NCBI GenBank assembly: GCA_045633245.1
Contig: JAZQYA010000001.1
Span: 3,017 to 67,016 of the forward strand
Length of the DNA stretch: 64,000 bases
Source of the DNA: Candidatus Onthoplasma sp.
Lineage (GTDB): Bacteria > Bacillota > Clostridia > Christensenellales > UBA1242
Reading direction: 5' to 3'
Shown: positions 4,931 to 50,590 of the stretch, one piece after another
Layout: each line of letters begins with the position of its first letter
Position numbering within the stretch: the stretch's first letter is position 1
Notes under the pieces: model-generated
The model's input: the letters and a program-made list of their open reading frames with translations, nothing else
Database searches by the model: none
What the model was told of the DNA's origin: nothing
Made by a program: the position numbers and the translations under genes

Positions 4931-6358
4931 TTATTCAACAATTTGCAATTGTGTTGGAAGAACACCTAAAGTGTTGGTAATTCCTAAATCAACGATATTT
5001 CCGCCACGATTAACGTTAAATACGATTTTGTCCCCTGTTCGAATAGTTAACATTAAATCTGCAAGTTGATAAGCGCGGGTGATGTTATGAACATTTCCAT
5101 TGATTGAAACAGATTTAACAATGTCTCCTATTTCAAGTCCAATATAATATCCAACACCATTTACTGTGACTGATTCGACCTTAAAGTCATCAACAATTAT
5201 TGTTCGATTTGTGGTTGGATTATAAACAGCATGACTATTGCTTGCAGAATATTGAATGTCTAAAACAAGTTTTTTCACTTGAGAGGGTGTTCTGTTTAAT
5301 TCATAATAATAAATTAAGTTGTCTGCAACTTTTGTTACGTTATCAATTGGAAGAGAGTAGGCAATGTTATCAATGTCACTTGAAACAGCTTTTGCATTAA
5401 CAATACCCATTAATTCACCATCCATATTGAAGAGTCCACCTCCAGAGTTGCCGCTGTTAACAGCTGTGTCAATTCTCATAACTCTAAATTTGCAGTTGGT
5501 CACATTGTCAGCTCCGGTCATTTCAATTGTTTCACTCACAACGGAAATAATTCCGCTTGTCACACTAAAACCTTCACATTCTGGATTTCCTATTGCAATT
5601 GCAGACTCACCTATATTATATTCGGTTGCAACTGATGCGGCTTTGGCATATTCATTGTTTTCTAATAATTTGGCGGTTTGAACCCTTAAAACGGCAAGAT
5701 CATAATTCAAAGTTCCACCAATAAATTCTACTTCAACAGCACCATGTCCGTATGTGTAAGTTGGATAACCATTATTTGTCTCACCTGTGTCATATACGGC
5801 TTCTTCGCCGCCATATTGGAAAATATTTATGCGACTTGCAATATGATTTGTTGTTTTGGTTTCTGGGGAATAAACAACGTGATAATTAGTCAGGATATAA
5901 CTATATTCATCATCCATTTTATATATCACACCAGCACCACAAGCAAGAGATGTGCTTTTTTCAAAATATGCTGACATTGTTGGGAATTCACACCACACAG
6001 TAACAGCGGATTGTATTGCAATATTTGTTGCATCTTCCACTACGGATTCTGTTTTTATAACGGTTAAGTATTTTTCAATAAATGTATCAAAATCTATAGA
6101 ATTTTCTTCGCAATAGTTTTTTATGCTTTCAATTGTTAAGTCGTTACCATCTTCTCCGTCTGAGCCATTTTTTACACTAAACAAAGAGGTTGAGCCGTCT
6201 GAGTAATGTATAGTGTAAGTTGCTGTATCACCAACAACTTCGGTTTTAACTATGTTAGTTACAAAAACTTGATCTTGTTTGAAAATTGAACACGCATTTA
6301 GCAAAAAAACGCACGGAATTAAACTGATTATTAATAATATTTTCTTTAATTTTTTCAT
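4931..6358 (-). CDS. Lipoprotein, trypsin-like serine protease (S1C/HtrA-like) with a C-terminal PDZ-like region
   Basis: Signal peptide plus lipobox (FLLNAC). Catalytic triad contexts are LTNYHVV, DLAVLRV and GNSGGGLFN. Confidence 0.8.
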   Translation of the reverse strand: MKKLKKILLIISLIPCVFLLNACSIFKQDQVFVTNIVKTEVVGDTATYTIHYSDGSTSLFSVKNGSDGEDGNDLTIESIKNYCEENSIDFDTFIEKYLTVIKTESVVEDATNIAIQSAVTVWCEFPTMSAYFEKSTSLACGAGVIYKMDDEYSYILTNYHVVYSPETKTTNHIASRINIFQYGGEEAVYDTGETNNGYPTYTYGHGAVEVEFIGGTLNYDLAVLRVQTAKLLENNEYAKAASVATEYNIGESAIAIGNPECEGFSVTSGIISVVSETIEMTGADNVTNCKFRVMRIDTAVNSGNSGGGLFNMDGELMGIVNAKAVSSDIDNIAYSLPIDNVTKVADNLIYYYELNRTPSQVKKLVLDIQYSASNSHAVYNPTTNRTIIVDDFKVESVTVNGVGYYIGLEIGDIVKSVSINGNVHNITRAYQLADLMLTIRTGDKIVFNVNRGGNIVDLGITNTLGVLPTQLQIVE

Positions 6359-24892: not shown

Positions 24893-24968
24893 TGGAGCTG
24901 ATAACGGGAATCGAACCCGTGACCTCCACCTTACCAAGGTGACGCTCTACCGACTGAGCCATATCAGC
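24893..24968 (-). tRNA. tRNA-Thr (anticodon GGT), CCA encoded
   Basis: The reverse complement GCTGATATGGCTCAGTCGGTAGAGCGTCACCTTGGTAAGGTGGAGGTCACGGGTTCGATTCCCGTTATCAGCTCCA folds by hand into a cloverleaf. The anticodon loop is TTGGTAA. Confidence 0.9.
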
Positions 24969-25226: not shown

Positions 25227-25240
25227 AACTACATTAAGAT

Positions 25241-25450
25241 GTTGACGGAAAAGAGTAACTTTGGAAGAGGCTTTTAGTGAGATAAGGATAGTGAGAACTT
25301 ATCAGTACAGCCAAAGTGAAAGACACTTCCCAGTCTTAAAAACAGCCAATAGGTTGCAGTTTTTAAAGTGGTTGAGTTAAACTCAACAAATTAGGTGGCA
25401 CCGCGGTGAGAGTTCATCGTCCTAATGCGATTAGCGTTAGGGCATTTTTT
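25241..25450 (+). promoter_or_regulatory. T-box riboswitch leader, Asp (GAC) specifier
   Basis: Stem I has an AGAGTA element, with ACTTTGG (25258-25264) pairing CCAAAGT (25311-25317). The specifier loop reads GAAA-GAC-A, with GAC at 25322-25324. The T-box sequence AAATTAGGTGGCACCGCG lies at about 25388-25405. A terminator hairpin CCTAATGC / GCGTTAGG plus a T-run sits at 25421-25450. Confidence 0.85.
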
Positions 25451-25489: not shown

Positions 25490-27229
25490 ATGATACACGT
25501 AAACAAATATAGAACAATAGATTGCGCAAGTTTGAGAATTCACAATGTTGGTGAGCAACACACATTATCAGGATATGTTGACACTATAAGAAAGTTGGGA
25601 GGAATAACTTTCTTGGTTTTGCGTGATTTCTATGGCAAAACTCAAATTATTTTACCTGAAAATTTAAATGTTGAATTAAATAAAGAAGATGTTATAACTG
25701 TTTCTGGAAAGGTTGAAGAACGTTCAAGTAAAAATCCACAAATGGAAACGGGAGATATTGAGGTAATAGCAGAAAAAATTGAGATTTTAAGCAGATGTAG
25801 ACATACTTTGCCTTTTGAAATTAAATCAAGTCAAGAAGTTAATGAAGATTTAAGATTGAAATATCGTTATCTCGACCTTCGTGCTGATTATAATAAGAAT
25901 ATGCTCAAATTAAGAAGTGATTTGATGTTGTTCGTTAGAAACTATATGAATAGTATAGACTTTTTGGAAGTGCAAACTCCAATTTTAACAGCATCAAGCC
26001 CTGAGGGAGCAAGAGATTTCTTAGTTCCTTCAAGATTAAACCCAGGAAAATTTTATGCATTGCCTCAAGCTCCACAACAATTTAAGCAATTGCTTATGAC
26101 AAGTGGTGTTGATAAATATTTCCAAATAGCACCATGTTTTAGAGATGAAGATGCAAGAGCAGATAGAAGCCCAACAGAATTTTATCAAATAGATATGGAA
26201 ATGGCTTTTGCAACTCAAGAAGAAGTATTTAAAGTTATAGAGGAATTATATGCTGGCATTTTTGAAAAGTTCGCAGGCAAGCGTCCTGTAACACCATTCA
26301 AAAGAATGACATATCTTGATGCAATGAAAGATTATTGTTCAGATAAGCCAGATCTTAGAAATCCACTTAAAGTGGTTGATGTTACAGATGTTTTCAAAGA
26401 AACAGAATTCAATGCATTCAAAAATAACACAATCAAAGCAATTAAAGTGAATTGTGGAGAAAAGGGAAGAAAATTTTACGATGCATTAACAGAATTCTTG
26501 AAGGGAAGAGAAGCAAAAGGGTTGGCTTATGTTAAGGTAAATGCTGAAGGTGAATTTGAAACAGGGATTAGTAAGTTTGTAACATCAGAACAAAAAGAAC
26601 AGCTTAAAACTATGTTACAATATGAAGAGAATGACACAATTTTCTTTGTTGCAGATGAAAAAGATAGAGCTGTTAAATTTACCAATATGTTAAGAAATGA
26701 ATTGGGTTCAAGATTGAACTTGATTGACGAAAATTCATTCAACTTTGTTTGGATTGTTGACTTCCCATTCTATGAACTTGACGATGAGGGTAAAATTGAA
26801 TTTTCACACAATCCATTTAGCATGCCACAAGTAAGCTTAGAAGAAATAAAGAAAGATCCTCTTAAAGCAAAAGCGTATCAATATGACCTTGTTATAAATG
26901 GATATGAAAGTTTGAGTGGAGGAGTTAGAAACTATGATCCAGAATTGATGGTTGAATTATTTAAAATTGCTGGCTATGGAAGAGAAGTTGTTGAAAATAA
27001 GTTCCCAGCGTTATACAATGCATTCCAATATGGCGCTCAACCTCATTGTGGAGCAGGAGCAGGATTTGATAGAATTATGATGCTTCTTACACACAATGAA
27101 TATATTCGTGATGTTTACGCATTCCCAATGAACAAAAATGGTTGTGACCCATTAACAAATGCTCCAAACGTTGTAACTGACAAACAATTAAAAGATGTTC
27201 ATATTAAATTAGATGTAAAAGGAGAATAA
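25490..27229 (+). CDS. aspS: Aspartate--tRNA ligase
   Basis: 579 aa. Class IIb motifs are present (FLVPSR, QAPQQFKQLLM, FRDEDARADRSPEFYQIDME, GAGAGFDRIMM). Confidence 0.95.
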   Translation: MIHVNKYRTIDCASLRIHNVGEQHTLSGYVDTIRKLGGITFLVLRDFYGKTQIILPENLNVELNKEDVITVSGKVEERSSKNPQMETGDIEVIAEKIEILSRCRHTLPFEIKSSQEVNEDLRLKYRYLDLRADYNKNMLKLRSDLMLFVRNYMNSIDFLEVQTPILTASSPEGARDFLVPSRLNPGKFYALPQAPQQFKQLLMTSGVDKYFQIAPCFRDEDARADRSPTEFYQIDMEMAFATQEEVFKVIEELYAGIFEKFAGKRPVTPFKRMTYLDAMKDYCSDKPDLRNPLKVVDVTDVFKETEFNAFKNNTIKAIKVNCGEKGRKFYDALTEFLKGREAKGLAYVKVNAEGEFETGISKFVTSEQKEQLKTMLQYEENDTIFFVADEKDRAVKFTNMLRNELGSRLNLIDENSFNFVWIVDFPFYELDDEGKIEFSHNPFSMPQVSLEEIKKDPLKAKAYQYDLVINGYESLSGGVRNYDPELMVELFKIAGYGREVVENKFPALYNAFQYGAQPHCGAGAGFDRIMMLLTHNEYIRDVYAFPMNKNGCDPLTNAPNVVTDKQLKDVHIKLDVKGE

Positions 27230-45788: not shown

Positions 45789-46346
45789 TTATCCTTTTCT
45801 TGTGAAGAAGTTTAAAAACCTTGCAAAGGTTAGTGTGATTTTGTTTGCATGCTTAATTGCAATTCGTTTAAATATTGCTTTTCCGCCGATGGTAAGACCT
45901 GCAATTATTGCTGCAATAAGCGATGGAATTAAAATTGCCATAAAATTTCCCCAATTATCTATTGCAATTTTTGCAACAATGCTTGCTCCTGCTGCACCAG
46001 ATAAAATTCCACAAACATCACCAATAACGTCATTTAAAATTGAACTAACTTTATCGGCATTTTTAACAAGTGCGATTGCCTGTTTGCTTCCTTTAACTTT
46101 TCTTGCTGCCATTGCGTTAAAGTCTTCAATGTTTGCACTGGCAACTGCAAGTCCTATCATGTCTGTTATAATGGCAAGAGCAATAAAAACCAAAATAACA
46201 ATAATAGCAACCAAAATGGCAGATCCATCAAGAATTAATTCGCTCAATAAACTAAAAGATAGAGAAAGAAAAACAGCCAATATTAAAACAATAATTGGCC
46301 ATATCCACATTTTTTTATTTTTTGATTTATTTGATTTTTGTTTCAT
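45789..46346 (-). CDS. Small polytopic membrane protein (about 4 TM), possibly an OapA-like / DUF21-like partner of the upstream RNA
   Basis: 185-aa ORF with a Lys-rich N-terminus and then hydrophobic segments. It starts 35 nt downstream of the RNA candidate, with no intervening terminator or obvious SD. The family assignment is speculative. Confidence 0.65.
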   Translation of the reverse strand: MKQKSNKSKNKKMWIWPIIVLILAVFLSLSFSLLSELILDGSAILVAIIVILVFIALAIITDMIGLAVASANIEDFNAMAARKVKGSKQAIALVKNADKVSSILNDVIGDVCGILSGAAGASIVAKIAIDNWGNFMAILIPSLIAAIIAGLTIGGKAIFKRIAIKHANKITLTFARFLNFFTRKG

Positions 46347-46380
46347 ATATGTTAAAGCTTTACGCTGAATAATTTAAATT

Positions 46381-46966
46381 ACGAAGGCAACATCTTGAGT
46401 AAACCTTGCGGCATAAGGTTCGGTTGGATTTCCCAATTTTGCACTTTCCCGTTACCAGCAAAGCGGTTTCCCTTTACGCAAAACTTGCACCGAATCGCCA
46501 CTGAGACCACACTATAATCCCCAAAATGCCTCGGATATCACACGAACAGTCTAGAAGTTTTCCTTAACAACATCGGCTAATCTTATCTTTATTTTGCAAA
46601 CGCAATTTCAAAAGCAACTTAAAATAAAATTTGTACTTCATTCTGTTCTAAGTTCACGCTTTATTCCAAGCAATTCACTCAAAGCAGGCTACACCATACA
46701 TAACTTTCGTCACATACGGGTTCCTCTCCTAAGCGATAAAAAGCGAACATGAAATAACCCATATAGATCCGTTTTTACCCACTTAAGTCTCCGCGATAAT
46801 TGGGCTTGAGCATGTATGCCATTACACACGACCCAAAAATCTTAACTCCCAGCACCAGCCCCGATTTGGGCAATCAAAGCCAGCACCACGAACTTCATAG
46901 TTATGCCAGCAATGCTTGTTTCAGCATCCTCAAATAGCATAGTTGACTAGAATACTGCGCCTTCGT
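46381..46966 (-). ncRNA. Large structured ncRNA candidate of about 586 nt (OLE-like or ROOL-class, or unclassified)
   Basis: About 790 bp has no ORF of 60 aa or more on any frame. GC is locally enriched (26/60 and 30/60 in sampled lines, against 11/60 in the flanking spacer). An 8-bp helix joins the two ends. Several local hairpins are present, and a near-consensus promoter lies just upstream on the minus strand. Confidence 0.6.
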
Positions 46967-46974
46967 GTAATATT

Positions 46975-47003
46975 ATATTAGCACACATTTCAAAAATTGT
47001 CAA
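46975..47003 (-). promoter_or_regulatory. Near-consensus extended -10 promoter driving the RNA candidate
   Basis: Minus strand reads TTGACA (complement of 46998-47003), a 17-nt spacer ending in TGC, then TAATAT (complement of 46975-46980). The predicted TSS falls within a few nt of the closing helix. Confidence 0.65.
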
Positions 47004-47157: not shown

Positions 47158-49212
47158 ATGAAACATTTAAAAACATTGCTTTGTTCGTTATTTGTTATTT
47201 GTTCTGGATTGGTGTTATTTGCCTGTGGTGACAAATCTCTCAAATTCGATGTTAACAAGGTTCTTATTGATGAAGAAAGAGTTTTTACTTATGATGGAGA
47301 AGAGCATGTGATTGAAGTTTCGTATGAAGGTGTTGATGCGGAAATCACATTTGCATTAGAAGATGATAAAAACAACTTCAAGCAATTAGAAGATTTTGAT
47401 ATCATAAATGCAGGGGAATATAACTTTTATTATAGATTATCAGCTAATGGTTATAAAACTTTCACATCCACAGAAACCTTTAACATAACAATTCAACCAA
47501 AGCCAATTGATATTTCTGTGGAAGATCAAGTTTGGATTAAAAGCAAAAACCCCAACAAAATTAATGTTTCTTACACAACAACAAGCCAAGATCAGGTTGA
47601 ACTTGAATTTAGTTTTGGTGAGGAATTTGATCTAAATTCTGCTCAATACGGAGATGAATATCCTATTTATTGCTCAGCAACTGATTCGAATTATGTTGTG
47701 AACAATATTTCAGCAACCTTGCGCGTGAGTGACATTGTTGAAGTTAGAAACAACGATGGAGTTCTTCAAAATTGTTATTCAAGTCTTAATGATGCGGTTT
47801 TAAATGCTAACAGTGGTGACACTTGCATTTTAAATAGTTCTATCTACTTAACTGAATCAATTGAAATAACAAAAGATATTACAATTGATGGACAAAACAA
47901 TAATTATGGCATAAGAGCATCAAATGTGGAATTTGCTTGTTCACGATATGCAGGAAAAGATGTGGCATCAATTTTTAGTGTTATAGATGATAATGCACGT
48001 TTAATATTAAAAGATATTGATTTAAATGGAAATCAAGTTGTGAGAGGTGTTTCTGCTTTTGCTGGAAAAGTTGTAATTGATAATGCAAACATAACTAATG
48101 GCAAAAAGAATGACAGTTGGAGATCTGGTGGTGTTTATATAACCAAATCTGCTAGTTTTGAAATGCTTTCTGGTAAGATTAATAAAAATAACCCAAATGA
48201 TGAAACTTACACTAAATATTGCGCTGATTTATGGATTGGTGCCAATGCAAACGGAACATTGGCATCAATCACAGGCGGGGAAATTGAAAGTGTGTTTGTG
48301 AATTCTAATGAATATTCAGCCAATGGTGCGGGTAAATTTTTCGTTAATGGCGGAAAAATAACAAATGTTTATGTAGAATATGACAGCGGTTATGGTGCTC
48401 AATTAGATTATAAAACGGGTGAAATTGAACACTTAATGATTGCATATAAAAATGACAATTCAAAAGTCTATGGTCATTGCTATGAAATTGCTCCAACTGA
48501 AAATCAAACATATTTTGGTGGAAAAATTTATTCAAACAGCTCAACAGCAGTTAAATATGAAAATGAAACTTATAATACTTTAAACTTGGAAAAAGGAAGA
48601 ACCTATATTTTTGAAAATTGCACATTTAATAATCCTTTAAGTTTAACAGATAAAGTTGGTTTAATTTTCAATGATTGTAGATTTTCATCAACTGAAGTTG
48701 CAACAATTTTATATGTAACATCTGTTTCAAATTTGATTATCAATAACTGCACATTTGATGGAAACACATCGGGTGGATATGCGATTGAAGTAAACCAATA
48801 TTCTGCAACTTGTGAAAACTTGATTATATCAAACAACATTTTCAACACTACTAATAATAAAAATGTTTCAATTTCAATTAAAGAAAGACTTGGATTCACA
48901 GACACGAACATTGCAGAAGAATGGGCAAAAGTTGAAAATCAGGGTTTAATTGAATGTCAAGTTAAAATTATTGGTAACGATTTCACTACGGGAAACAACA
49001 TTATTTGTATTGGTGAAGGTCCTAATCCTGGCAACATTCCGGCAAACACTTCAACAGGCGATTTTGATTTATTATTAAGTGAAAATCTTGATGCGTTAAC
49101 AATTTACAACAAATATAAAGATCATGCATATGTTGAAGAGCAAGATGCTTCAAAGGTTAATGTTGACGCAAAAGCGATTTATGATTCAACAATAGAAGCA
49201 TTTGAATATTAA
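47158..49212 (+). CDS. Surface lipoprotein with N-terminal Ig/MBG-like repeats and a right-handed parallel beta-helix region
   Basis: Signal peptide plus lipobox (LVLFACG). The C-terminal half has repeated NxxF/GN turns (NNCTFDGN, ISNNIFN, IIGNDFT) typical of pectate-lyase-fold repeats. Confidence 0.7.
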   Translation: MKHLKTLLCSLFVICSGLVLFACGDKSLKFDVNKVLIDEERVFTYDGEEHVIEVSYEGVDAEITFALEDDKNNFKQLEDFDIINAGEYNFYYRLSANGYKTFTSTETFNITIQPKPIDISVEDQVWIKSKNPNKINVSYTTTSQDQVELEFSFGEEFDLNSAQYGDEYPIYCSATDSNYVVNNISATLRVSDIVEVRNNDGVLQNCYSSLNDAVLNANSGDTCILNSSIYLTESIEITKDITIDGQNNNYGIRASNVEFACSRYAGKDVASIFSVIDDNARLILKDIDLNGNQVVRGVSAFAGKVVIDNANITNGKKNDSWRSGGVYITKSASFEMLSGKINKNNPNDETYTKYCADLWIGANANGTLASITGGEIESVFVNSNEYSANGAGKFFVNGGKITNVYVEYDSGYGAQLDYKTGEIEHLMIAYKNDNSKVYGHCYEIAPTENQTYFGGKIYSNSSTAVKYENETYNTLNLEKGRTYIFENCTFNNPLSLTDKVGLIFNDCRFSSTEVATILYVTSVSNLIINNCTFDGNTSGGYAIEVNQYSATCENLIISNNIFNTTNNKNVSISIKERLGFTDTNIAEEWAKVENQGLIECQVKIIGNDFTTGNNIICIGEGPNPGNIPANTSTGDFDLLLSENLDALTIYNKYKDHAYVEEQDASKVNVDAKAIYDSTIEAFEY

Positions 49213-49260
49213 AAAACAAAACTCCTTAGTCAAGCACTTTTGAAACGAACGTAATAATTG
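49211..49260 (+). repeat. Left copy of a roughly 50-bp imperfect inverted repeat (3' UTR element)
   Basis: AAAAAACAAAACTCCTTAGTCAAGCACTTTTGAAACGAACGTAATAATTG matches the reverse complement of 50535-50590 at about 40 of 50 positions, with one 6-nt indel. Confidence 0.6.
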
Positions 49261-49293
49261 AGAGTTAAGATAGAAATGCCTTAACTCTTTTTT
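49261..49293 (+). terminator. Rho-independent terminator of the beta-helix lipoprotein gene
   Basis: AGAGTTAAG (49261-49269) pairs with CTTAACTCT (49280-49288), followed by T5. Confidence 0.75.
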
Positions 49294-49316
49294 AACGGCA
49301 ACTTTATGCCGTGAAA

Positions 49317-49453
49317 GGTACTTAACAAGAGAAGAAATGAAAACATAATATCAAAAGGCAGAGAAACGAAAAACAAAAGTATACGCACACATATCGTTTC
49401 TCTGTCTTAACCAACAAATGAAAAACTCATTTCAGAGACTCTTGTCAAGTACA
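49317..49453. ncRNA. Nested-helix RNA candidate with 6S-like architecture (strand uncertain; the minus strand is slightly favoured)
   Basis: Three coaxially nested helices: 49318-49331/49439-49452, 49334-49340/49427-49433 and 49357-49369/49394-49406. They enclose a 16/20-nt asymmetric bubble and a 24-nt terminal loop. Confidence 0.4.
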
Positions 49454-49477
49454 CCATGGAATACATAGGTATAACAG

Positions 49478-49523
49478 CAAAAAGCGAAAGTGTGTTACGC
49501 TCTACCAACACTTTCGCTTTTTG
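49478..49523. terminator. Bidirectional terminator (probably ends the 273-aa gene transcript)
   Basis: Perfect 11-bp stem AGCGAAAGTGT (49483-49493) / ACACTTTCGCT (49508-49518), with A5 before and T5 after. Confidence 0.7.
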
Positions 49524-49544
49524 TCTGATTTATTTAATCGATAT

Positions 49545-49601
49545 GAGTGTGCTTGTCTGTTGGAGCGAAGCGATCACCACTTGTATATGATAAGCACACT
49601 C
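49545..49601. other. Long-loop hairpin immediately 3' of the 273-aa ORF
   Basis: Perfect 10-bp stem GAGTGTGCTT (49545-49554) / AAGCACACTC (49592-49601) with a 37-nt loop. Confidence 0.4.
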
Positions 49602-49620
49602 CTATGTGTCAATTCAATTT

Positions 49621-50442
49621 CTATTTACTAAAAATATCTTCAAAATCTGTAGAATCCCAATGTGATTGCCAATTACGGATAACTCCAACTCTTAATTGAT
49701 GAGGATTTGGGAAATTTTGTTGCTGTAAACTTCCGCAAAGTTCTGCAACTTCATTTGGGTTAACATTATAAGCAGAAGAAAATGCTGAATATAGATTTCC
49801 CATTTGTTTGCCCGAGACAATAGAATATATTGGTAGTTCTATATCGTTGTATGACATGTAACTTTTAATTGCGGAAAGGTCTTTAAACCAATCACTATTT
49901 AAAACATATTCAATACTTTCTCTCAAAGTAAAGTGACGCAATTTTTTAAATGATTGTGCAACATCTTCAAGTGAACTACTAGGAATACCAATCCCAACAA
50001 AATAAGATGAGTTTATTTTATCTCTTACTCTATATTCGCCATCAAGCCAATCACTAAAATGTTTTGGGTTAAACTCTTTTGTTGTAGAGGGATTGTCTAA
50101 AATGCTTTTATCTAAAATAATACTTAAACCACTAGAAACAAAACAATTATAACTTTCGCTTATTTTTGTTGGATCTACAAAACTTGGTTTTTGACAAATT
50201 GATATGTGATCTCTACCATTACACTTTGGCGAACGAGAGCGAGAATTGTGAAATGCAAAGTCATTTGACTGCAAATTTTCACTTAATATGGCATTAGCGT
50301 CAAGTATAGCTCTCAATCTATTTAGTTTTTGTTGTGGCTCTAAATATGTTCCAATTCCATGAAATAAACACTCGTCAAGGTTAATCTCTTGTGGGATTAC
50401 TCTTTTGGGTGTTGTATGACCATTTTTAATGTTGCATTTCAT
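49621..50442 (-). CDS. Hypothetical protein (273 aa), orphan
   Basis: Long ORF with AGGAGG upstream (complement of about 50450-50455). No signal peptide, no TM segment and no motif I can assign. Confidence 0.65.
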   Translation of the reverse strand: MKCNIKNGHTTPKRVIPQEINLDECLFHGIGTYLEPQQKLNRLRAILDANAILSENLQSNDFAFHNSRSRSPKCNGRDHISICQKPSFVDPTKISESYNCFVSSGLSIILDKSILDNPSTTKEFNPKHFSDWLDGEYRVRDKINSSYFVGIGIPSSSLEDVAQSFKKLRHFTLRESIEYVLNSDWFKDLSAIKSYMSYNDIELPIYSIVSGKQMGNLYSAFSSAYNVNPNEVAELCGSLQQQNFPNPHQLRVGVIRNWQSHWDSTDFEDIFSK

Positions 50443-50501
50443 TTATTTTGTCCTCCTATTTAATATTATAACAGAAAATCTTAATTATTTCAATACATTC
50501 A

Positions 50502-50533
50502 ACAAAAAAGCAAACCACACAAATGATTTGCTT
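50502..50533 (-). terminator. Rho-independent terminator of uppP
   Basis: AAGCAAA (50508-50514) pairs with TTTGCTT (50527-50533), with a U-run on the minus strand. Confidence 0.65.
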
Positions 50534-50534
50534 T

Positions 50535-50590
50535 CAAATATTACACTAGTTTCAAAAGTTGGTGACTTTTTGTAAGGAGTTTTTTGTTTA
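50535..50590 (-). repeat. Right copy of the roughly 50-bp imperfect inverted repeat (3' UTR element)
   Basis: The reverse complement TAAACAAAAAACTCCTTACAAAAAGTCACCAACTTTTGAAACTAGTGTAATATTTG aligns with 49211-49260. Shared blocks are AAACTCCTTA, ACTTTTGAAAC and GTAATA. Confidence 0.6.

Follow-up and report, generated by a model that had tools for sequence, protein, structure and literature searches.

The stretch analysed here, referred to as the window, comprises 64,000 nucleotides (64 kb) of contig JAZQYA010000001.1 from Candidatus Onthoplasma sp., whose genome (30.7% GC) belongs to an uncultured Clostridia lineage. Two of its genes, one for a protein of 684 amino acids (aa) that ends at 49212 and the other for an orphan protein of 273 aa (49621-50442, minus strand), converge on a 408-nt gap that contains a long imperfect palindrome of non-coding DNA (49296-49464, plus strand). 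Judged by its sequence and architecture, this element is most probably an ssoA-type single-strand origin, that is, a lagging-strand origin of the rolling-circle and mobilizable elements of Firmicutes, acting as plus-strand DNA. It belongs to a mobile cassette of 1340 bp (49228-50567) that has been inserted into the chromosome.

The central part of the palindrome (49317-49453) had been described in a first-pass annotation as a nested three-helix element with the architecture of a 6S RNA, and all the helices given there are present. H1 pairs 49318-49331 with 49439-49452 over 14 nt, with a single mismatch that is A.C on the plus strand and G.U on the minus strand. H2 pairs GAAATGA (49334-49340) with TCATTTC (49427-49433) and is found both in the sequence and in the folds of the two strands, while H3 pairs 49357-49369 with 49394-49406, can be extended to 49355-49408 and closes a loop of 24 nt. 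Between H2 and H3 lies the expected bubble, 16 nt on its 5' side and 20 nt on its 3' side. The arm sequences of all three helices occur only once each in the window. Folded as RNA, the plus strand of 49317-49453 reaches -41.3 kcal/mol (z = -7.55, with 0 of 200 dinucleotide shuffles as good) and the minus strand -45.7 kcal/mol (z = -7.0), the latter being slightly better because the H1 mismatch of the window copy becomes G.U there; folded as DNA, the plus strand gives z = -6.8. Related copies have a longer rod of about 180 nt, extended by an outer helix H0 (TGGCTA/TAGCCA, TTTAT/ATAAA and CGTG/CATG); in the window copy, 8 nt of the 3' arm of H0 are deleted.

The base of the rod carries the sequence evidence for a plasmid-type origin. 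Published hallmarks of single-strand origins are the RSB (TTATGCCGAGAAAATTT) and CS-6 (TAGCGT) sequences (PMC4598088). The RSB box of the element, TTTATGCCGTGAAAG, lies immediately 5' of H1 (49303-49317, plus strand) and is identical to pMV158 5221-5235 at 15 of 15 positions, and to the RSB quoted in PMC4598088 at 13 of 17. On the opposite side of the rod, the segment that includes the 3' arms of H2 and H1 (49427-49463, plus strand) contains the conserved block TTGTCAAGTACACCATGGAATA (49442-49463), which agrees with pMV158 5341-5362 at 20 of 22 positions in the window copy and at 23 of 24 in the related copy L082. A sensitive blastn comparison of that related copy with plasmids matched the non-coding region downstream of mobV in pMV158, along with the ssoA regions of about a dozen small streptococcal and enterococcal plasmids, the matched regions reading GATTTATGCCGTGAAAGCTATTTGACAATAAGC ... 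TTGTTGTCAAATAGACCATGGAATAAA. Alignment with pSRD478, as well as with pMV158, likewise speaks for an ssoA. Seven plasmid ssoAs, and no other sequences, went into an nhmmer profile of 163 model positions. This profile matched the window significantly only once, on the plus strand at 49303-49464 (E = 3.7e-4; model positions 12-152), and in 1.6 Mb of other loci it matched only copies of the element's own family.

The order of the parts is also that of pMV158. When folded as DNA, the pMV158 ssoA has the base helices TTTAT/ATAAA and CCGTG/CCATGG, then the stem bearing TTGACA, then a 7-bp helix, above which a 14/14 bubble holds TACGCT 16 nt past TTGACA, and finally a terminal stem with CS-6 at the apex. 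In the element, the 5' arm of H1 (49318-49331, plus strand) holds in its duplex the -35-like hexamer TTAACA (49322-49327), which is TTGACA in the family consensus; the 5' arm of H2 (49334-49340, plus strand) forms the duplex portion of a 16-nt spacer; and the -10-like hexamer CATAAT (49344-49349) lies on the 5' side of the bubble (49341-49356, plus strand), facing the more variable 3' or template side (49407-49426, plus strand). The terminal stem H3 and its loop (49355-49408, plus strand) present the hexamer TACGCA at 49382-49387 (plus strand), TAAGCA in other copies, as the counterpart of the plasmid CS-6. It was this -35/spacer/-10-in-bubble layout that raised the suspicion of a single-stranded DNA promoter, folded ssoA being recognised as a promoter by RNA polymerase and primed with a short RNA (PMC5703833; PMC4595007). 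The helix following H1 stays paired across subfamilies despite changes of sequence, as CAGTGAC/GTCACTG, CAATGAC/GTCATTG and CTAGGTC/GACCTAG in the plasmids and GAAATGA/TCATTTC here. On the strength of the RSB and 3' block identities, the shared order of the fold, the pairing of H2 and the profile match, the element was filed with the ssoA-type origins. The first-pass annotation had noted a possible promoter on the plus strand and dismissed it as one that would start transcription inside the structure; such promoter-like hexamers belong to the design. The family has TTGACA-16-CAYAAT with the -10 in the bubble, the same layout as the TTGACA-16-TACGCT of pMV158.

Set beside the pMV158/pLS1-type ssoA (palA) as a whole, the element is alike in the RSB, in the complementary 3' block ACCATGGAATA, in the TTGACAA/TTGTCAA stem, in the spacing that puts the -10-like hexamer in a bubble below a terminal stem-loop, and in being a non-coding, strand-specific segment of about 160-180 nt. 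It differs in that its bubble has a near-consensus CATAAT where the plasmids have TACGCT or TAGACT, in its apical TA(A/C)GCA as against TAGCGT, in having no rep or mob gene nearby, and in its location within a chromosomal, inverted-repeat-bounded cassette of an uncultured low-GC Clostridia lineage. Several of the observations count against an ssoA assignment. Only some 50 nt in the basal part of the rod resemble the plasmid ssoAs, the interior being unrelated; the E-values, 3.7e-4 for the window and 0.3-4 in the search of the whole plasmid collection, are modest; and the apical hexamer, though kept in an otherwise variable loop, is not CS-6. No rep, relaxase or transposase gene was found in any copy of the cassette. 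Within the family the helices do not covary, and one-sided changes in the stems (G.U as against A.C, by count from the alignment) favour neither strand, about six favouring the plus strand and about four the minus. Finally, the window copy itself looks weakened, with TTAACA for its -35, an A.C pair in H1 on the plus strand and the 8-nt deletion in H0.

Conservation was judged from an alignment of eight distinct full copies. Almost no change is seen in the 5' arm, which bears the promoter-like elements: the consensus of the H1 5' arm is GTAC-TTGACA-AGAG, and CAYAAT (with Y either T or C) follows 16 nt after the hexamer, in the unpaired bubble. The 5' side of this bubble is invariant apart from the third base of the -10-like hexamer. 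In the apical loop only TA(A/C)GCA is kept, the rest being variable. Of the stem cells 95.8% are paired, but just one pair has changed on both sides, and the covariation score observed is equalled or exceeded in 106 of 500 shuffles; the helices are conserved in relatives without covarying. A control in the same alignment, the hairpin I1 farther along the cassette, does covary, with a score reached by none of 500 shuffles. As the helices covary no more than shuffled alignments and the control hairpin does, the three helices are constrained in sequence and not in shape alone.

How such an origin would work can be sketched from the plasmid precedents. Whenever the plus strand was exposed as single-stranded DNA, as rolling-circle replication or conjugative entry might bring about, the palindrome, imperfect and about 170 nt long, would fold. 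The RSB box and the -35 hexamer would then be placed in the duplex stems H0 and H1 with H2 as spacer, while the 16/20-nt bubble would keep the -10-like hexamer open and so present host RNA polymerase with a pre-melted promoter. Polymerase starting at the foot of H3 would make a short primer RNA toward the apical loop, and extension of this primer by a DNA polymerase would turn the single strand into duplex. That the promoter is aimed into the apex of a hairpin, and not outward toward genes, suggests to us that it is meant for priming. The data establish the homology to ssoA, the common architecture, the strand, the conservation and the insertion of the mobile carrier. With no rep, relaxase or transposase encoded in cis, a single-stranded stage has to be assumed for the cassette, and the window copy may still be able to fire.

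The first-pass annotation had read the same structure as a 6S RNA. The closing stems, large asymmetric bubble and terminal stem on which that reading was built are real, and its idea of an open-promoter mimic suits a folded ssoA recognised by RNA polymerase, but the molecule in question would be DNA instead of RNA and the assignment to 6S RNA found no match in Rfam. That the site is a 6S RNA gene, or encodes a 6S-like RNA whose rod-shaped transcript sequesters RNA polymerase, is barely credible. The rod with its large central bubble and length of about 180 nt in relatives does resemble 6S RNA (RF00013), another open-promoter mimic that templates a short RNA, and the minus strand folds slightly better as RNA, its mismatch there being G.U. 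However, the Rfam search that the annotation had called for gave no RF00013 at the gathering score in the 64 kb, where the only matches were an OLE (ornate large extremophilic) RNA, a T-box and a tRNA, and none at E <= 10 either in 49150-49700 or in three related copies (L083, L115 and L104); at the same threshold the element region and its relatives gave only chance hairpin matches to Rfam as a whole. No promoter was found upstream of the rod on either strand, in agreement with the annotation, which had seen no dedicated one, and the only good sigma-70-like site is inside the rod. Whereas 6S RNA is the product of a housekeeping gene that has a promoter and a terminator of its own, the element has DNA promoter hexamers and specific blocks in common with plasmid DNA origins, and its carrier is a multi-copy mobile cassette that is missing at the syntenic locus of the relative L137 and has its other copies in unrelated loci. 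With neither an Rfam match nor an upstream promoter, and given the mobile carrier and the ssoA blocks, 6S RNA is left unsupported. It is also rather improbable that TTGACA-16-CATAAT serves mainly as an ordinary double-stranded promoter for a small RNA of about 170 nt, running from about 49356 to the terminator T2 (ending at 49523) with H3 as a protective 5' hairpin. The site scores 10 of 12, its -35 is perfect in the family consensus, a strong terminator stands about 165 nt downstream and the 5' arm is highly conserved, all of which speaks for such a promoter; it would not explain why the 3' arms of H0, H1 and H2 are perfectly complementary, nor why near-perfect stems should contrast so sharply with a fully non-complementary bubble exactly over the -10, and the same -35/16/-10 layout recurs in plasmid ssoAs, a class published as acting on folded single-stranded DNA. 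An ordinary promoter and an ssoA are compatible readings, in that an integrated site might still be firing.

The remaining explanations concern what the palindrome does, or no longer does, for the cassette. It is unlikely, though by no means far-fetched, that the window copy has decayed, being descended from an ssoA but without function now that its cassette is stranded. The G-to-A change in its -35, which creates the A.C mismatch of H1, the shortened 3' arm of H0, the 5' side of which has drifted into a local hairpin, and the failure to find a mobility gene in the cassette would all fit such a history. Set against them, no damage is seen in the RSB box, H2, the bubble, H3 or the 3' block, the fold remains far better than that of shuffled sequence, and the same sequence has been kept in eight distinct copies despite completely different cargo; the contrast of near-perfect stems with a bubble wholly non-complementary over the -10 likewise argues for design rather than decay. 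We regard as very improbable the possibility that the nested inverted repeats are bound by a trans-acting cassette recombinase as a recombination or transposition site. In its favour, RSB was first defined as a plasmid cointegrate recombination site (PMC5703833), and the stems are conserved in sequence instead of covarying, but the palindrome lies about 70-240 nt inside the cassette, away from its true ends, which bear unrelated inverted repeats of their own, and the promoter-in-bubble layout would again be unaccounted for. Four further candidates were rejected: an integron attC site, as H1 reads GTCAAG in the family consensus against GTTRRRY and the site stands alone; the bridge RNA of an IS110 element or the omega RNA of a TnpB, neither protein being present; an independent foldback miniature inverted-repeat transposable element, the palindrome never being found outside its 390-nt block; and a coding region, the 44-aa open reading frame (ORF) at 49456-49590 (plus strand) that runs from the end of the palindrome through T2. 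This ORF is unconserved and is not considered a gene because it meets a stop codon after two codons in relatives.

The limits of the cassette that carries the ssoA-type element were drawn from its inverted repeats and from the limits of homology between loci. The left terminal inverted repeat (49228-49264, plus strand) has the tip AGTCA and the core CTTTTGAAAC-A--GTAATA at 49237-49256, and the right one (50531-50567, minus strand) has its core at 50539-50558; the two are 37 nt long, imperfect (78% complementary) and recognisable by CTTTTGAAACTAGYGWAAWA. Each end also has an inward-facing terminator. That on the left, T1 (49261-49295, plus strand), is AGAGTTAAG...CTTAACTCT followed by T6, and its hairpin varies in sequence among copies yet remains self-complementary; that on the right (50501-50534, minus strand) is AAGCAAA...TTTGCTT followed by a T run, and an equivalent hairpin is also present at the non-ssoA end of L082, L086 and L095. 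Outside the repeats lie the two halves of a split host terminator, AAAAAACAAAACTCCTT (49211-49227, plus strand) and its inverted repeat TTTTGTAAGGAGTTTTTTGTTT (50568-50589, plus strand).

In the relative L137, which has a 684-aa protein orthologue (54% identical), the genes for this protein and for uppP are only 32 nt apart, and the spacer between them is the intact terminator AAAAACTCCTTAATTTAGGGGTTTTTTT (2802-2833). In the window the 1340-bp cassette interrupts the loop of this terminator, which the two genes have in common. The empty orthologous site is the decisive control for insertion of the cassette. Once the cassette is removed in silico, the halves in the window fold as an A-tract/stem/loop/T-tract hairpin of -13.1 kcal/mol. 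At the four loci where both cassette ends are available, the flanking DNA outside the repeats is a locus-specific inverted repeat that, minus the cassette, gives a hairpin of the same kind with a loop of 4-8 nt and -13 to -25 kcal/mol. Seven of the eight insertions are between convergent genes, and their targets are unrelated terminators, alike in shape only. No clear direct repeat indicating target-site duplication was seen at the cassette junctions.

Further copies were located in two ways. Homologues of the 273-aa protein led to a block corresponding to window 49207-50569 that recurs, at about 85% identity, between different neighbours (L082/L083 and L086). A metagenome scan with the conserved bubble sequence then added 11 more loci that have a 390-nt non-coding block (window 49226-49612) without the 273-aa gene. 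Contigs often end within the block (L084, L085, L107 and L116), as is to be expected of a repeat. In L099 and L111 the homology ends inside the ssoA apical loop, so that these are truncated or recombined copies, L111 having block-type ends on both sides. The contig L114 runs from about 4592 straight from the cassette block into CTGTCTCTTATACACATCT, the Nextera adapter sequence, and its end is accordingly an assembly artefact. Eighty loci around ychF from GTDB genomes held no copy of the element, but the species representatives were too distant, the best YchF identity being 65%. Exact look-ups of the window proteins gave no match, scans of viral contigs with four patterns gave no true match to the element, and the plasmid and phage collections contained neither a copy of the cassette nor a homologue of its cargo; nor did the viral, plasmid or phage collections yield an autonomous parent element.

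A possible and still tentative reading of these loci is that the ssoA marks an undescribed family of non-autonomous cassettes of 1.3-2.3 kb in uncultured gut Clostridia. Such a family would be characterised by inverted repeats of about 37 nt, by insertion between convergent genes, at the apex of their bidirectional intrinsic terminators, by an inward-facing replacement terminator at each end, by interchangeable orphan cargo genes, and by a 390-nt module with the ssoA, a possible relaxase nick site and the covarying hairpin I1. Its members would move by hitch-hiking on helper enzymes, passing through a single-stranded stage from which the duplex would be regained by way of host RNA polymerase. 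As an ssoA-type origin the element represents a known kind in a new setting, and the cassettes may form a new family of non-autonomous mobile elements.

Among known systems, there are precedents for single-strand origins in chromosomally integrated mobile carriers, where they are used after transfer or replication as single-stranded DNA: the ssoA in the oriT-mob-ssoA module of IMESag-rpsI (PMC5090054) and sso1 of ICEBs1 (PMC4595007). Those carriers, however, are 9-20 kb long with their own relaxase and integrase, and the cassette described here, at 1.3-2.3 kb for the family, has neither. In the Frpo/ssi sequences of the leading regions of conjugative plasmids a folded single strand likewise offers a -35 and -10 to RNA polymerase (PMC4595007); there is no similarity in sequence, and the promoter here points into the hairpin apex. 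The insertion at the centre of an extragenic palindrome recalls ISPpu9 and ISPpu10 and their repetitive extragenic palindromic (REP) sequences. Those, however, are IS110-family insertion sequences (IS) with a recombinase, a bridge RNA and a specific repeat as target, whereas the targets here are unrelated terminators. Mobile insertion cassettes offer another comparison, MIC231 being one that is derived from IS231. Such elements, for example the qnrD-carrying mic elements (PMC3913671), resemble the present cassettes in having terminal inverted repeats around passenger genes, no transposase and a variable cargo. The present ones differ in having no known parent IS, a conserved 390-nt non-coding module with an ssoA, terminator hairpin loops as insertion sites, and no clear target-site duplication.

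The case corrects a tempting mis-annotation, in that a 6S-like rod in an intergenic region of a Firmicute can be a DNA origin and not an RNA gene. Origins of the ssoA type, familiar chiefly from small Bacilli plasmids, are also carried over by it to mini-cassettes that lack replication and transfer genes and lie in the chromosomes of uncultured gut Clostridia. Should these cassettes indeed pass through a single-stranded stage when they move, they would represent a compact new vehicle for orphan genes, and a natural case of an element that targets terminator hairpins and mends the damage with its own terminators. The conserved module provides a simple sequence handle with which to look for further copies, helpers and cargo.

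The cargo gene of the window copy (49621-50442, minus strand) is preceded by a promoter read from the sequence as TTGAAA-17-TATAAT (50465-50493, minus strand). Its 273-aa product has 19 homologues, all unnamed, and no match in Pfam, NCBIfam, PHROGs, PADLOC or PDB sequences. The AlphaFold model is fairly confident (pLDDT 78.7, pTM 0.77); compared with PDB and BFVD structures it gave nothing significant, the best being DarT single-stranded DNA ADP-ribosyltransferases at E = 0.3-1.7. Cargo is completely different between the cassette copies and varies in orientation, examples being two unrelated 273-aa orphans, a 487-aa ORF, a pair of 181 and 403 aa, an 89-aa ORF and a protein with an HD domain. 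There is no Rep, relaxase or transposase among the cargo proteins. Homologues of the 273-aa gene with 74-90% identity also occur without the non-coding part (L081, L087-L089 and L092-L094), in at least four other gene contexts, so the gene itself seems to move or to be multi-copy. In L093 it adjoins a large serine recombinase.

Two more hairpins separate the ssoA-type element from the cargo gene. T2 (49478-49523), a bidirectional terminator found in the inverted-repeat search, is a perfect 16-bp hairpin with A5/T5 flanks and a 14-nt loop, which is unusually large and partly conserved. At the junction of its stem and loop, AGTGTG/TTA (49489-49497, in the context AAAGTGTG/TTAC) resembles the oriT nick site of MOBV, the pMV158-type relaxase family, and GTGTGTT in T2 is kept in seven of the eight copies. 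The MobM nick region in the pMV158 oriT is AAAGTATAGTGTG/TTATAC (PMC5863519), and the MOBV pattern is GTG(T/C)G/T next to IR1-IR3. Because T2 and the pMV158 oriT have only 9 nt in common and differ in the order of the arms, the motif, the one hint in the cassette of an element with a single-stranded stage, is a lead, not a finding. The hairpin I1 (49547-49599) has the loop motif GCGAAGC (49565-49571), a 10-nt bulge (ACTTGTATAT) on its 3' side and a distal stem that covaries among the copies, four versions being known in all. A homologue in the unverified faecal phage-like contig MT835493.1 (L138 2486-2569) has the fourth compensatory version of the distal stem; it adjoins another long palindrome with TTTAGCGG at its apex.

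Away from the cassette, the OLE RNA in the window is full-length (46368-46979, minus strand; 334 bits), which is notable for a gut-type Clostridia genome of this low GC content. It adjoins the gene for a 185-aa membrane protein (45789-46346, minus strand) with a weak match to the CNNM domain, which may be oapA, the usual partner of the OLE RNA. The T-box leader (25233-25427, plus strand; 93.3 bits), barely above its gathering score, is upstream of a 579-aa ORF (25490-27229), and just upstream of the leader on the opposite strand is a tRNA-Thr (GGT) gene (24896-24968, minus strand).

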